Both the position numbers and the translations under genes were made by a program. This document shows positions 48,658-54,397 of a DNA stretch of 64,000 bases, piece after piece. Under the pieces are notes generated by a model. It was not told the DNA's origin. It ran no database searches and worked only from the letters and a program-made list of their open reading frames with translations. This stretch comes from Phycisphaerae bacterium (GTDB lineage Bacteria > Planctomycetota > Phycisphaerae > UBA1845 > Fen-1342): contig JASFQK010000004.1 of the NCBI GenBank assembly GCA_050115495.1, positions 125,609 to 189,608 of the forward strand, in the 5' to 3' direction. The first letter of the stretch is position 1, and each line of letters starts with the position of its first letter.

Positions 48658-48800
48658 ATGCCCCGTCAATCCACCCCGCCCGCCTACCGCAAACGCCTGA
48701 TCCGCGGCCGTGAAGTCGCCGTCGTGACACTCCGGGACCGGGAAACCGGTCGCCGGCGGGATTACTGGCTTGGGGCGTCGGAACGCCTGAGAGCCGGGCC
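48658..48800 (+). pseudogene. Truncated N-terminus of a planctomycete-type site-specific integrase
   Basis: MPRQSTPPAYRKRLIRGREVAVVTLRDRETGRRRDYWLG resembles the arm-binding N-terminus (P.YR...AVVTL...RD.YLG) of tRNA-targeting integrases; about 120 nt downstream of tRNA-Ala; no catalytic domain follows. Confidence 0.55.
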
Positions 48801-48845
48801 GCGTACGCCCGGCTGCTGCACGGCTGGTTCGGCAACATTGCCCGC

Positions 48846-49130
48846 GTGCTGCTTCCCGGGCGGGCGGCGTACATCCGGGGCGGCTGCGCCAACGTCGCCG
48901 ACTACGCGCCGGTGCGGATGGCCGCCGGGCTGTACTTCTCCCAGACGATCATCTGGGTGAAGGAGCACCCGGTCCTCACCCGCAAGGACTTCATGGGCAA
49001 CCACGAGTGGTGCTTCTGCACGTGGCGCGAGGGCGCCGCCCACGTCTTCCTTGGGCCGAACAACGCGACCGACGTCTGGTCAGTCAAGAAGGTCAACCCG
49101 CAGTCGATGGTGCACCTGACTGAAAAGCCT
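48846..49130 (+). pseudogene. Internal fragment of an N6/N4 DNA methyltransferase (phage/ICE type)
   Basis: GLYFSQTIIWVKEHPVLTRKDFMGNHEWCF..W.EGAAH...NATDVWSVKKV...HLTEKP; lacks the DPPY-type motif and the SAM-binding FxGxG motif. Confidence 0.7.
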
Positions 49131-49207
49131 CAGAATCCCACGTCCGCCGCAGGGGGCGAACGCTATAGCTTTGTCAACCCATTTGCACGCGGTTGTGCAA
49201 CGGGGGC

Positions 49208-49235
49208 TTGCAACGCGTGCCGAAAACGGTATGAT
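49208..49235 (+). promoter_or_regulatory. sigma70 promoter of the LysW operon leader
   Basis: TTGCAA(49208-13)-N16-TATGAT(49230-35); predicted start site about 49242-43, coinciding with the leader-peptide ATG. Confidence 0.6.
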
Positions 49236-49242
49236 GCTTCGC

Positions 49243-49311
49243 ATGATGAGCCGTTTGACCACCAAGAAGCCGCAGAAAAACGCCAAGCGCAAGCAGAGCG
49301 CTGCCGGCTGA
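49243..49311 (+). CDS. Lysine-rich attenuator leader peptide (22 aa)
   Basis: MMSRLTTKKPQKNAKRKQSAAG*: 5 Lys codons in a 10-codon stretch, including tandem AAG AAG; not in the ORF track. Confidence 0.7.
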   Translation: MMSRLTTKKPQKNAKRKQSAAG

Positions 49312-49341
49312 AGGTGTGGTCTTACGATATTCTGAACCCAC

Positions 49342-49373
49342 CGACGCCGGCTCCGGTCGGCGTCGTTCTTTTT
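49342..49373 (+). terminator. Attenuator terminator
   Basis: CGACGCCGGC-TCCG-GTCGGCGTCG-TTCTTTTT; its 5' arm can instead pair with 49303-49320. Confidence 0.8.
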
Positions 49374-49422
49374 CCCCACGAACGAACGTCAGCGGCCGAG
49401 CCCGTCGGTAAAGGAGATTCCG

Positions 49423-49533
49423 ATGGTGCCTTTTGCTGAGACGAGTCGGTGGCAGAGCCATAGCCCCGCCGTCAACACGCCTGCCAAGTCCAAGCCTCTC
49501 AAGCGCCAGCCGGCGGTCGCGCTCTGCGACTAG
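49423..49533 (+). CDS. Small ORF (36 aa) with strong RBS, possibly a gene remnant
   Basis: AAGGAG-N6-ATG; MVPFAETSRWQSHSPAVNTPAKSKPLKRQPAVALCD*. Confidence 0.3.
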   Translation: MVPFAETSRWQSHSPAVNTPAKSKPLKRQPAVALCD

Positions 49534-49644
49534 CCGGCCCTCCCTGACTTCCAACCTGAGTGCCTGAGACAGACACCGAGCACGGGCGGATCGGCCGCCT
49601 GTGGTCGTTGGCCGACTACTTCGCAACGAACAAGGAGCGCAACC

Positions 49645-49809
49645 ATGACCGCGTGTGTGATCTGTGGTGGAACCGTGCCTGTGCCCGCCGACGCCATCCC
49701 GGGTGAGCTGATCGAGTGTGCCGAGTGCGGCGGCGAGCTGGAGATTGTCGCTGTCGACCCGCTCGAATTGGCCGAGGCTCCGACGGAAGAGGAGGACTGG
49801 GGGCAGTAA
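49645..49809 (+). CDS. lysW: Amino-group carrier protein LysW/ArgW with atypical C-terminal EDWGQ
   Basis: [63 protein letters not shown] (54 aa, two CxxC, acidic); missed by the ORF track. Confidence 0.93.
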
Positions 49810-49882
49810 CCCGCCGGCGCCAGCCGGCTCCGCACCGGCCTGGCAAGACCATCGGCGGTCGTTCCCCATAGAGGATACAAGT

Positions 49883-50743
49883 ATGATCAGAGTCGGTTTT
49901 CTGCATTCCATCATCCGCAAGGACGAACGATTTCTGCTGGAGGAACTGCGCGATCGGCCGGACGTTGAGGTGGTGTTGATCGATGATCGCACGCTGGCCT
50001 TCCATCTCGGTCGCGACCGCCACGATCTGCATGTGCTGCTGGGACGCTCGCTTAACCGGTCCCGCGGGCTGTACGCGTCCCGCCTGTTCGCTAGCGCCGG
50101 TGTACCCTGCGTCAACATGCCCACGACAGCCGCCGTCTGCGGCGACAAGCTGCTCACCTCGGCAGCCCTGGCGGACCAGGGTGTGCCGCAGCCCGAGGTG
50201 CGCGTCGCGTTCACCGCCGAGTCCACCCTGCGGACGCTCGACGAAATGGGCTACCCGGCGGTGCTCAAGCCGGCGGTAGGCTCGTGGGGTCGGCTCCTGG
50301 CCAAGGTAAACGACCGCGACGCAGCCGAGGCACTGCTCGAACACAAGACCGTGCTGGGCTCGTACCACCACTCGATCTTCTACATGCAGCGGTACATCGA
50401 GAAGCCGTGCGGCCGCGACGTCCGCAGCTTCGTCGTTGGCGACGCGTGCATTGCGGCGATCTGCCGCACGTCGGCGCACTGGATCACCAACACAGCTCGT
50501 GGCGGGACGGTCTCCAACTGCCCGCTCACCGAGGAGCTGTGCGAGCTTTCGCTGCGGGCAGCCCAGGCGGTAGGCGGCGGCGTGGCCGCGATCGACCTGT
50601 TCGAGACCAGCGACGGGCTGCTCGTCAACGAGGTGAACGACACGATGGAGTTCAAGAACAGCATCGACGTCACCGGCGTGAACATCCCGGCCCGGATCGT
50701 CGACTACGTGCTGGACGTGGCGCGGAGGGCTGAACATGAGTAA
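49883..50743 (+). CDS. lysX: Alpha-aminoadipate--LysW ligase (RimK-family ATP-grasp)
   Basis: [61 protein letters not shown]. Confidence 0.93.
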
Positions 50744-51782
50744 GATCAACGTCTCCATCGTGGGTGGGTCCGGCTACGTCGGTGGCGAGCTGCTGCGGTT
50801 GCTACTGGCTCACCCGCACGTCGAGGTGCGGCAGGTCACATCGCAGCGGCTGGCGGGCCGGTCGGTCGGCAAGGCGCATCCCAACCTGCGCGACCGCACG
50901 AGGCTGGCGTTCTGCCAGCTAGACGCGCTGGAGCCTTGCGATGTTCTGCTGTTGTGCCTGCCGCACGGGCAGGCGATGGACGCCATCGACGAGTTCTGCG
51001 CCAGGGCCGGCTGGATCATCGACCTCAGCGCGGACTTCCGCCTGCGGAGCCCGGCCGACTGCGACAAGTGGTACGGCTACGCGCATCGCCGGCCGGAGTT
51101 GCTCGGCGAGTTCGTCTACGGTATCCCCGAGCTGCATCGCGACGCCATGCGCGCTACGACGCTCGTCTCCAGCGCGGGCTGCAACGCGACCGCCACGATC
51201 CTCGGCCTGTTCCCACTGTTCAAGCACGGTCTGGTCGAGACGCGAACACCGGTGGTTGTCGAGGTCAAGGTCGGCTCGAGTGAAGCCGGGGCTACCGCCA
51301 CGTCGGGTTCACATCATCCCGAGCGTGCTGGTTGCGTGCGTTCCTTCATGCCGACGGGCCATCGGCACACAGCCGAAATCGTGCAGGAACTTGGTGGCGG
51401 CCGCGACCTCACCGTGCACCTGTCGGCCACCACGCTGGACCAGGTGCGTGGCGTGTTGGCCACGTGCCATGTCGAGCTGCGCGACGACCTCGACGAGCGC
51501 GACATCTGGCGCGTGTACCGCGAGACCTACGGCGAAGAGCCGTTCATCCGCATCATCAAGGAGCGCGACGGCATCTACCGTTACCCCGAGCCGAAGCTGC
51601 TGGTGGGCACGAACGGTTGCGACATTGGCTTCGAACGCGATCCGCATTCGCGACGGCTGGTCGTGCTCAGCGCGATTGACAACCTCATGAAGGGCGCGGC
51701 CGGCCAGGCCGTGCAGGCCCTGAACATCATGCACGGATTCGACGAAAGGGCCGGCCTGGAGTTCCCCGGCCTGCATCCCTGA
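50736..51782 (+). CDS. lysY: [LysW]-aminoadipate 6-phosphate reductase (ArgC family)
   Basis: [69 protein letters not shown]. Confidence 0.93.
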
Positions 51783-51783
51783 C

Positions 51784-52425
51784 GTGTGCCGACTGCTGGT
51801 AGTTAAATCGACGTCCCCGTTTGCGTGTGAACCGCATCTGTGGGCCTTCGCGCACATCGCCGCACACAGCCCCGAATATCAGGGTCACGGCTGGGGCTGG
51901 GCCAGGCTCGACGGCCACGGGTACTGGCACGTGCACCGGAGCATCCGGCCCATCTGGGAGGATGACCTGGCCTCCTGTCCGGATACCACGCTGTTGATTG
52001 CCCACGCCCGCAGCGCGTTTCGCAACCAGGGCATCGCCGTCGAGAACAACATGCCGTTTCACGACAAGCGCTGCGTCTTCGCCTTCAACGGCGAGCTGCA
52101 CGGCGTCCGCCTCCGCCAGCCGGGCCGAACCGGCGCCGAGAAGATCTTCAACCTGATCCGGCGTGGCGACCGCGGCGATCTCCGGGCGGCGCTCGCCACC
52201 GCGGCGGCGGCGATCACGCGGCACACGCGCTACGTCCGGGCCATGAACATCGTGCTGTCGGACGGATACTCCGTGCACGTGCATTCGGCGTTCAACGAAG
52301 ACCCGGACTACTTCACGCTGTTCACGCGTTCAACCGAACTGGGCTTCATCGTCTGCTCGCAGCCGTACGCCGGCGGCGGCGAGTGGACCCCAATCCCGAA
52401 CCATACCCTGAGGACCTTCACATGA
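51784..52425 (+). CDS. Class II glutamine amidotransferase/Ntn-hydrolase (YafJ/EgtC/Dug3-like)
   Basis: (M)CRLL N-terminal Cys nucleophile, GHGWG, IAHARSA, ENNMPF, FAFNGEL, GAEKIF, MNIVLSDG, CSQP; tightly coupled to lysY (1-nt gap) and lysZ (ATGA overlap). Confidence 0.88.
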   Translation: MCRLLVVKSTSPFACEPHLWAFAHIAAHSPEYQGHGWGWARLDGHGYWHVHRSIRPIWEDDLASCPDTTLLIAHARSAFRNQGIAVENNMPFHDKRCVFAFNGELHGVRLRQPGRTGAEKIFNLIRRGDRGDLRAALATAAAAITRHTRYVRAMNIVLSDGYSVHVHSAFNEDPDYFTLFTRSTELGFIVCSQPYAGGGEWTPIPNHTLRTFT

Positions 52426-53246
52426 TCGTGATCAAGATCGGCGGCGGAGCCGACATCAACCATCGGGCGATCTTCGAAGACCTGCGCCGACTGCTGGACC
52501 GGGGCGAACGGGCGATTGTCGTCCACGGGGCCAACCACGAAATGGCCGAGCTCTCCGCCCGGCTGGGACACGAGCCCTGCTTCGTCCGCTCCGTTTCGGG
52601 ACAGGAGAGTCGCTACACCGACGCCGCGGCCATGGAGATCTTCCAGATGGCCTACTGCGGCAAGGTCAACAAGACGCTGGTCACGCTGTGCCAGGCCCTC
52701 GGCATAAACGCGGTTGGCCTGGCCGGCCTGGACGGCCGGCTGCTGCTCGCGCGGCGTAAGCAGGCTCTACGCGTCGTTGAGGCCAGCCGCCGCCGGATCA
52801 TCCGCGACGATCTGAGTGGCAAGGTCGAATCCGTCAACACGGCGTTACTGGACCTGCTGTTGGGCCACGGCTATCTCCCGTTGATCTGCCCACCGGCACT
52901 CGGCGACGAATCCCAGGCCCTCAACGTCGATGGTGACCGGGCCGCAGCCATGATCGCGGCAGCCATGAAGGCCGAGCGTCTCGTTATCTTCTCGAACGTG
53001 CCCGGCCTGCTGCGCGACAAGGACGACGAGGCGACGCTGATCTCCGAGATCGCGTATGCCTCCATCGGCGAATGCGAGCGGTTCGCCCAAGGTCGCATGA
53101 AGAAGAAGATCATGGGCGCCGCCGAGGCGCTGTCACTGGGCGTCGGCGCGGTCGTCCTCGCCGACGGGCGCACCACGCGGCCGTTGGAAGATGCTCTGAA
53201 TGGACGGGGCACCCTGATTCATCGAACTAATACGAGGTTACCATGA
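52422..53246 (+). CDS. lysZ: [LysW]-aminoadipate kinase (ArgB family)
   Basis: MIVIKIGGG, VVHGA, SVSGQESRYTD, GKVNK, GLAGLDG, LNVDGDRAA, SNVPGLLRD, GRMKKK. Confidence 0.92.
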   Translation: MIVIKIGGGADINHRAIFEDLRRLLDRGERAIVVHGANHEMAELSARLGHEPCFVRSVSGQESRYTDAAAMEIFQMAYCGKVNKTLVTLCQALGINAVGLAGLDGRLLLARRKQALRVVEASRRRIIRDDLSGKVESVNTALLDLLLGHGYLPLICPPALGDESQALNVDGDRAAAMIAAAMKAERLVIFSNVPGLLRDKDDEATLISEIAYASIGECERFAQGRMKKKIMGAAEALSLGVGAVVLADGRTTRPLEDALNGRGTLIHRTNTRLP

Positions 53247-54397
53247 ACGTGAGCGAACTGGCCCGAACATATGAACTGGACGTCTACGCGAAACGCAACG
53301 TGACGCTGGTACGCGGTGCGGGCGCCAGGCTGTGGGACGCCGCCGGCCGCGAGTACATCGACTGTGTCGCCGGCTTTGGCGTCGCCAGCATTGGCCACTG
53401 CAATCCGCAGGTCGTTGCGGCGGTCTCTCGCCAGGTCGAGCGACTCGTGACCTGCCCGGGCAGCTTTGACAACGATGTGCGGGCTCGGCTCTGTGAGCGA
53501 TTGATAGGCATCACGCCATCATCGCTCAGCCGTGTCTTCCTGTGCAACTCGGGAGCCGAGGCGATTGAGGCCGCCATCAAGCTCGCTCGGCTCACGACCG
53601 GGCGGACCGATTTCGTTTGCGCTACGCGCGGTTTCCACGGCCGCACGTTCGGCGCGATGAGCGCCACGCACAACCCGAAGTACCGGCAGGACTTCGAGCC
53701 CGCCGTGCCCGGCTTCAGCTTTGTACGGTTCAACGATCGTCAGGAACTGGAGGCGGCCGTGACCGATCGTACGGCCGGTGTGATCCTCGAAATCGTGCAG
53801 GGCGAGGGCGGGGTCCGCGTCGGCCGGCCGGAGTTTTTCCGGGGGCTCGACACCTGGTGTGCGCAGCGCGGCGTGCTGCTCATCATCGACGAGGTGCAGA
53901 CCGGCTTCTGTCGGACCGGCAGGATGTTTGCGTCGCTACACTACGACCTGCGGCCGGACATCCTCTGTCTGGCCAAGTCGATTGCCGGCGGATTGCCCAT
54001 GGGCGCCGTGCTGTGCTCCGATGCCGTCCCCACGCTGCGTGGCAAACATGGCTCGACCTTCGGCGGCAATCCGCTGTGCTGCGCCGCCGGTCTCGCGGCC
54101 ATCGAGTTTATGCAAGCGGAGCGACTCGACGTCCAGGCGGCGGAGAAGGGCGCCTATCTGATGAATGCGCTGCGCCAGTGCTCGCTCGACAGCGTGCGCG
54201 AAGTCCGCGGCCTGGGTTTGATGGTGGGCATCGAGTTGCGCCACCGGGTCCAGCCCGTGCTGGTGGATCTCATGAAGCGCGGCGTTCTTGCCCTGCCTGC
54301 CGGCCAGACCGTGTTGCGGCTGCTGCCGCCGTTGGTGATTACGCACGCCGAGCTTGACCGCGTGGTGGAAGTGCTGGTGTGCTCGCTGCGGCGGTGA
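53243..54397 (+). CDS. lysJ: [LysW]-aminoadipate semialdehyde transaminase (ArgD family, PLP class III)
   Basis: YIDCVAGFGV, NSGAEAIEAAIK, FHGRTFG, VQGEGG, DEVQTG..RTG, LAKSIAGG, HGSTFGGNP, RLLPPL. Confidence 0.92.
   Translation: MNVSELARTYELDVYAKRNVTLVRGAGARLWDAAGREYIDCVAGFGVASIGHCNPQVVAAVSRQVERLVTCPGSFDNDVRARLCERLIGITPSSLSRVFLCNSGAEAIEAAIKLARLTTGRTDFVCATRGFHGRTFGAMSATHNPKYRQDFEPAVPGFSFVRFNDRQELEAAVTDRTAGVILEIVQGEGGVRVGRPEFFRGLDTWCAQRGVLLIIDEVQTGFCRTGRMFASLHYDLRPDILCLAKSIAGGLPMGAVLCSDAVPTLRGKHGSTFGGNPLCCAAGLAAIEFMQAERLDVQAAEKGAYLMNALRQCSLDSVREVRGLGLMVGIELRHRVQPVLVDLMKRGVLALPAGQTVLRLLPPLVITHAELDRVVEVLVCSLRR

Follow-up and report, generated by a model that had tools for sequence, protein, structure and literature searches.

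The lysW gene described here lies in a 64,000-nucleotide stretch of DNA from a Phycisphaerae bacterium (the window), and the amino-group carrier that it encodes ends in glutamine (Q) where the known chemistry calls for glutamate (E). Whereas the canonical LysW pathway has LysK, the operon headed by this gene has none, and carries instead a gene for an unrelated hydrolase, a stand-alone class II glutamine amidotransferase domain of the Ntn type (Ntn in the following). This enzyme very probably replaces LysK, and it is probably also the deamidase that turns the encoded glutamine into glutamate. The reading is based on sequences, gene order, mutual exclusion between Ntn and LysK, enrichment of Q-ended carriers in Ntn operons, fold and conserved catalytic residues.

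To our knowledge, no terminal residue other than Glu has been considered for LysW, and no releasing enzyme other than LysK. In the known pathway, according to passages in PMC10433800 and PMC12998189, LysX couples the substrate, through its amine, to the Glu at the end of LysW, and the last step falls to the hydrolase LysK. A search of open-licence papers in PMC and of bioRxiv, a body of text that mostly does not extend to subscription papers and meeting abstracts, returned no EDWGQ, no Gln-ended LysW and no LysW-linked glutamine amidotransferase; the main text of the GapMind 2026 preprint (10.1101/2024.10.14.618325) names neither lysK nor an amidotransferase nor EgtC.

The carrier gene and its terminal codon

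The first-pass annotation, made from the letters of the window alone, had proposed an unannotated LysW of 54 residues ending EDWGQ, and this is confirmed by the open reading frame (Table 1) and by the Pfam profile PF21344 (LysW), which the protein matches with 56.2 bits at a cut-off of 27; with the NCBIfam profile TIGR01206 it scores 48.9 bits, slightly below the cut-off of 53.2. The translation starts MTACVIC and ends EEEDWGQ, with CxxC pairs at residues 4-7 and 25-28 and with 13 Asp or Glu and no Lys or Arg; the strong ribosome binding site (AAGGAG, Table 1), the two zinc motifs and the acidic character noted earlier are all found. The protein is thus an acidic zinc ribbon of the size of a carrier, in an operon with LysX, LysY, LysZ and LysJ, but since EDWGQ is encoded, and not the free-Glu terminus EDWGE, it is filed as a LysW variant rather than as a plain member of the family. 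In all six frames of the 5.97-Mb assembly (92% complete), DWGE or DWGQ followed by a stop codon occurs only in this lysW, from which follows that the assembly contains no second, Glu-ended copy. A scan for promoters and terminators gave nothing that clearly exceeded shuffled sequences.

Table 1. Features of the lysW operon, numbered from the first nucleotide of the window
Feature	Position	Strand	Basis
Shine-Dalgarno-like AAGGAG, 7 nt 5' of the lysW ATG	49632..49637	+	sequence
lysW, amino-group carrier, 54 aa	49645..49809	+	ORF from ATG at 49645 to TAA at 49809; PF21344, TIGR01206
terminal Gln codon CAG at the Glu position	49804..49806	+	genome sequence; run contigs
lysX, ATP-grasp LysW ligase with ITNT (Asn-Thr, lysine-type) signature	49883..50743	+	TIGR02144, 330 bits, cut-off 275.6
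lysY/argC-type reductase, overlaps the end of lysX	50736..51782	+	TIGR01850, 382 bits
Ntn hydrolase, a stand-alone domain of the class II glutamine amidotransferases with the EgtC fold, 213 aa beginning Met-Cys	51784..52425	+	PF13230, predicted model, co-occurrence
lysZ, [LysW]-aminoadipate kinase, start codon overlapping the end of Ntn	52422..53246	+	NF010659, 350.9 bits, cut-off 223
lysJ/argD-type aminotransferase, final gene of the operon	53243..54397	+	profile scores

The codons GAG and CAG are one G-to-C change apart, which would favor an error in sequencing or assembly, or else a mutation private to this genome, as the origin of the terminal glutamine. When read support at 49804 is judged on assembled run contigs, as distinct from raw reads, two contigs are identical to the window across the codon: one from run X1, possibly the source run of the assembly (identical over 49400-52500, depth 23), and one of 179 nt from run X2 of a different study (identical over 49712-49890, depth 2.4). 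The first-pass annotation would have been overturned by close relatives that all end EDWGE; the two nearest homologues of the carrier, P0002 (83% identity) and P0003 (72%), both end EDWGQ, and Q is widespread and recurrent. A metagenome scan for EEDWGQ followed by a stop, a pattern that misses carriers ending GEDWGQ or AEDWGQ, gave 72 LysW among the 119 matches listed, i.e., at least 72 more Q loci. With a contig from an independent study, Q-ended homologues and these metagenome loci, error and private mutation are rejected with near certainty.

Among the best 150 of 334 LysW cluster representatives, 116 tails end WGE, 16 WGQ, one WGD and 17 otherwise. The description of the tail as a single Glu-to-Gln change is correct in that the glutamine is real, but understated, in that the LysW family has arrived at Q repeatedly as an alternative to E. 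The WGD tail (EEEDWGD in P0169) is the sole one that is neither E nor Q among the 133 of these that end WG-x.

The operon and its Ntn hydrolase

The genes follow each other, tightly packed, in the order lysW, lysX, lysY, Ntn, lysZ, lysJ, and no lysK was found after lysJ or elsewhere in the operon. The earlier statement that the other genes are intact agrees with their open frames, with the profile scores of LysX, LysY, LysZ and LysJ, and with the retention of 58 of 59 LysX and 87 of 89 LysY columns that are conserved in operons with Glu-ended carriers. The first-pass annotation, which is supported overall, overlooked the probable deamidase gene three genes downstream of lysW and the absence of lysK.

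The operon starts about 1.1 kb past a tRNA-Phe and a tRNA-Ala gene, has a G+C content like that of the genome, and is patchy in its occurrence: none of 60 relatives has LysW, and of 200 members of the class one has the Ntn gene. Between the tRNA pair and lysW, at 48660-49140, there are broken frames which we take to resemble the start of an integrase and a DNA methyltransferase; Pfam and NCBIfam searches over 48846-49436 gave no match. The frames are perhaps the remnant of an element that carried the operon in.

The product of the Ntn gene scores 21.8 bits against PF13230, below the cut-off of 23, and belongs to a family with 3158 database matches and 531 genome loci. Its predicted structure (pLDDT 93.7) has EgtC as best structural match (TM 0.78-0.83; Z 27.1, rmsd 1.7 Å over 200 residues), followed by the glutaminase domains of GlmS and PurF, with Z values of 20-27 across EgtC, GlmS, PurF and GFAT, and an Atlas search returned GATase_4 clusters only. 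EgtC (PDB 4zfj/4zfk/4zfl; TIGR03442), like Ntn a stand-alone class II domain, is an Ntn hydrolase of ergothioneine biosynthesis that hydrolyses a gamma-glutamyl amide. Ntn is not a member of the EgtC family: the two are 21-22% identical, Ntn scores 54.2 bits against TIGR03442, where the cut-off is 218.65, its genes stand among lysW-pathway genes and not ergothioneine genes in 80 of 80 loci, and its substrate would be the C-terminus of a protein.

All of 120 Ntn sequences share Cys2, His74-Ala-Arg76-Ser, Asn102-Gly103 and Gly117 without variation. A Cys after the initial Met, an Asn-Gly oxyanion motif, a carboxylate-binding Arg and the Ntn fold are thus present, as in class II amidotransferases. 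Equivalent residues form the glutaminase site of GFAT-1, for which a passage in PMC7000685 gives Cys2, Asn123, Gly124 and Arg95. An hhalign alignment with the genome's own GlmS, which is weak (probability 0.8%) and is read only at the anchored motifs, pairs HARSA with HTRWA, FNG with HNG, and TGAE with TDTE, so that the invariant Gly117 stands opposite the Asp of TDTE. In GlmS this Asp binds the free alpha-amino group of glutamine. Insofar as this weak alignment is a guide, a glycine here would fit a glutamyl group whose alpha-carboxylate is free while its alpha-amine is held in a peptide bond, as in the last residue of a protein.

A proposed single hydrolysis for maturation and release

To see how a single enzyme could serve two purposes, consider residue 54 of the carrier. 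Encoded as glutamine it is a gamma-glutamyl amide of ammonia, and the loaded form, LysW-gamma-Lys, is a gamma-glutamyl amide too, from which follows that maturation of the carrier and release of the product would be the same hydrolysis. If an enzyme of EgtC/glutaminase fold sets lysine free, it should also take ammonia off Gln54, and so convert new LysW-Gln into loadable LysW-Glu once per carrier, which would then cycle as LysW-Glu. It is fairly probable that Ntn hydrolyses the gamma-amide at residue 54 in this manner, so that lysine is set free in each cycle and ammonia only once, from newly made LysW-Gln. Both activities, and the binding of Ntn to LysW, are inferred. Since all carriers would be Glu-ended after one turnover, there should be little constraint on whether E or Q is encoded where Ntn is present, and Ntn should be kept with E-ended carriers, because release is always needed.

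The lysine route of the genome

In this genome (92% complete) the best score against TIGR01902 (LysK) is 100.3 bits, the cut-off being 163.1, and no protein exceeds it. The sole M20/TIGR01902 match scores best as acetylornithine deacetylase and sits on contig C19 in an arginine operon of the acetylated type, which is separate from the lysW operon. Genes for a homoaconitase (752.7 bits, cut-off 529.9) and a homoisocitrate-dehydrogenase-like protein are present, as is dapB; neither lysA nor the HMGL-like family (homocitrate synthase, LeuA) gave a match, and for the latter the cause is possibly an assembly gap or another source of homocitrate. Contig C16 of this genome (G000) carries, despite the absent HMGL-like match, a second aconitase-family gene as well as the homoaconitase. 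From the homoaconitase, the separate arginine operon, and the lack of lysA and of a LysK over cut-off follows that the LysW route looks needed here. The need is not universal, as a genome of the same order that carries Ntn also has lysA.

According to passages in PMC10433800, the lysine type of LysX in Sulfolobus is marked by Asn-Thr, a motif which by itself does not fix specificity. The ITNT signature of the present LysX makes lysine, rather than ornithine, the likely product of the operon.

Association of Ntn, LysK and the carrier terminus

Among the best 80 of 531 Ntn relatives in GTDB genomes, every locus adjoins lysX, lysY, lysZ or lysJ, and none contains LysK. A lysW is seen in 58 of these loci, with 46 tails in E and 12 in Q; a profile search for lysW in the other 22, many of which end at contig edges while others are split, found none. 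At L022, L026, L037, L045, L076 and L080, Ntn, in some cases with lysZ, and lysJ stand apart from lysW-lysX-lysY, and from this follows that Ntn stays together with the genes for the last steps of lysine synthesis.

Mutual exclusion extends to whole genomes. LysK exceeds the TIGR01902 cut-off in 0 of 50 Ntn genomes (a subset of the 80 with all 12 Q genomes included) compared with 4 of 14 control genomes, and a full-length Ntn match occurs in 0 of 38 LysK genomes (one partial match, 38.6 bits), in a search that detected two of two divergent-Ntn positive controls. For the comparison of operons, control loci were anchored on LysW in 201 genomes of the phylum of G077, on LysX in 251, 101 and 251 genomes in the phyla of G071, G068 and G067, and on LysK in 301 genomes of the phylum of G061, the LysK control being sampled outside Chloroflexota, Deinococcota, Thermoproteota and Asgard archaea.

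Sorting of 141 genome loci that were not chosen for Q gave 21 Ntn operons with Q, 56 Ntn operons with E, 30 LysK operons with E, no LysK operon with Q and no operon with both enzymes; kept out of these counts are 24 Ntn loci and 7 LysK loci in which no lysW was detected, and three E loci whose available stretch contains neither of the two enzymes. Two of the 7 LysK loci (L266, L267) have, upstream of lysX, carriers that lack all four zinc cysteines (ISPITG...DDPETG) and keep EDWGE. Five further loci stand outside the sorting: one Ntn with E, three E where neither enzyme was reached, and one LysK without lysW. Q tails are thus found in 21 of 77 Ntn operons versus 0 of 30 LysK operons (Fisher p 7e-4, with kin that are not independent), and the LysX- and LysW-anchored subsets by themselves contain 9 Ntn with Q, 10 Ntn with E, 13 LysK with E and no LysK with Q.

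Of the Q-anchored metagenome loci, 18 reach the position of Ntn, and all 18 carry it. In four the enzyme is divergent (29-32% identity) and is the last gene, after lysJ, which is where the retrieved LysK operons have lysK. None of the 72 loci has LysK; 54 of them break off within 3 kb, before lysZ and lysJ. When 36 short Q loci with a piece of LysX are assigned by that piece, 35 are nearest to LysX of the Ntn type and one (L144) to the LysK type.

These counts bear on the alternative that Ntn only replaces LysK, while the glutamine is removed by a more general route, i.e., by another amidase or by a side activity, perhaps one that is also present in systems of the LysK type. Such a route would account for the carriers around the LysW of Ca. 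Caldarchaeum (Sulfolobus-type LysW/ArgW; P0145, P0279-P0302), 18 of 25 of which are Q-ended, and for the lack of any Ntn alignment column that cleanly separates Q from E operons. The latter is also what an ancestral Ntn that already accepts Gln would give, since no Q-specific adaptation would then be needed; with the distribution of Q over Ntn and LysK operons, and a class II glutaminase fold that is the obvious gamma-amidase for Gln, a general route is unlikely. The rule that Q occurs only with Ntn holds for the bacteria sampled and for the sampled archaea with small genomes, and may not extend to all organisms; elsewhere LysK or another amidase may do the deamidation, so that Q may not depend on Ntn everywhere.

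Scans of viral contigs for a LysX or GEDWGQ-carrier context gave nothing useful. Two IMG/VR contigs have lone LysW-like ORFs ending EEEDWGE (L287:6403-6555 and L288:10001-10138), possibly phage-borne carriers, and in the stretches examined there is no match to lysX, lysY, lysZ, lysJ, Ntn or LysK.

The amide of the glutamine could also be used directly, if an acyl intermediate on Ntn (or LysX) passed the carrier to the amine of aminoadipate and LysW-Glu were skipped in the first cycle. A gamma-glutamyl thioester is an intermediate in the reactions of class II enzymes, and Ntn has the fold of an amidotransferase. Yet LysX is intact in Q operons, with a mean retention of 0.975 over 59 conserved columns, one of which differs between Q and E, and most Ntn operons encode E, which makes direct transfer very unlikely.

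Deamidation could, furthermore, be the only task of Ntn, with release left to an unlinked M20 enzyme, for which the ArgE-like protein on contig C19, at 100 bits against TIGR01902, would be the one candidate in the genome. The affinity of this protein to acetylornithine deacetylase and its place among arginine genes speak against that division of labor, as do the 47 of 50 Ntn genomes without a match at E 1e-25 and the 56 Ntn operons whose E-ended carriers need no deamidase, and it is assigned only a slight probability.

Changes between E and Q in the phylogeny

An IQ-TREE phylogeny of LysX and LysY with 106 rows, computed without the Q-anchored set, contains 14 changes between E and Q (13 without the sequence from the window), all on Ntn branches and counted without an established root or direction of change. 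The enzyme type changes twice between Ntn and LysK, and one of these changes is forced by supported branches. The branch lengths are 16.9 for Ntn and 9.8 for LysK, so that at equal rates about 7.5 changes should fall on LysK branches, where none is observed (p ~0.003), a contrast that is essentially one between two clades. With only one or two enzyme swaps independent contrasts cannot reach significance, and another clade-wide trait could be what permits Q, instead of Ntn.

If Q-ended carriers were inactive products of relaxed selection, their patchy operon, and the presence of lysA in the genomes of some carriers, would be easily understood. Lys and Gly are one transition away from Glu codons and Gln requires a transversion, yet the 77 Ntn operons have E or Q tails only, with both CAG and CAA as Gln codons, EDWG stands unchanged in all of 54 aligned carriers, and there are entire subclades with Q. 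That only E and Q occur in spite of easier mutations, and that LysX and LysY of Q operons are conserved as in E operons, argues against decay, as the first-pass annotation had supposed, and relaxed selection is therefore highly improbable. One-time deamidation by Ntn would account for the repeated switches to and from Q on Ntn branches and for the lack of tolerance of any third residue.

Discussion

With the LysW/ArgW systems of Thermus thermophilus, Sulfolobus, Thermococcus kodakarensis and Natrinema the present operon shares an acidic zinc-ribbon carrier with EDWG and the genes for LysX, LysY, LysZ and LysJ. The carriers of known structure (PDB 3wwl, 5k2m and 3vpb) are E-ended in all three cases, unlike the one described here. 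LysK (TIGR01902, NF003367), for which Ntn would carry out the same release step, is an M20 metallopeptidase; the two enzymes, which exclude each other in operons and genomes, are unrelated in fold and chemistry, with a metal centre in LysK and an N-terminal Cys nucleophile in Ntn.

A similar logic is known from protein degradation. Pup is a small protein which, depending on the species, is encoded with a terminal Gln or Glu, and Dop, an enzyme of carboxylate-amine-ligase fold in actinobacterial pupylation, not only deamidates the Gln but also cuts the isopeptide bond of the gamma-glutamyl group. The pair LysW and Ntn would resemble Pup and Dop by analogy, no homology being claimed, with an Ntn fold in place of the ligase fold and with amino-acid biosynthesis in place of degradation.

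We lean, with modest confidence, towards a so far undescribed branch of lysine biosynthesis in many bacterial phyla and small-genome archaea, in which a gamma-glutamyl amidase with a Cys nucleophile stands in for LysK and matures a Gln-capped pro-carrier, so that the logic of Pup and Dop would have been reinvented, possibly with loading gated by the capacity to unload. If this is true, a function would be assigned to a family with more than 3,000 database relatives, and an apparent gap at the last step of lysine synthesis would be closed in many uncultured lineages. The exchange of a metallopeptidase for an Ntn hydrolase would be a non-homologous replacement, and a maturation step would be added to the biology of amino-group carriers.
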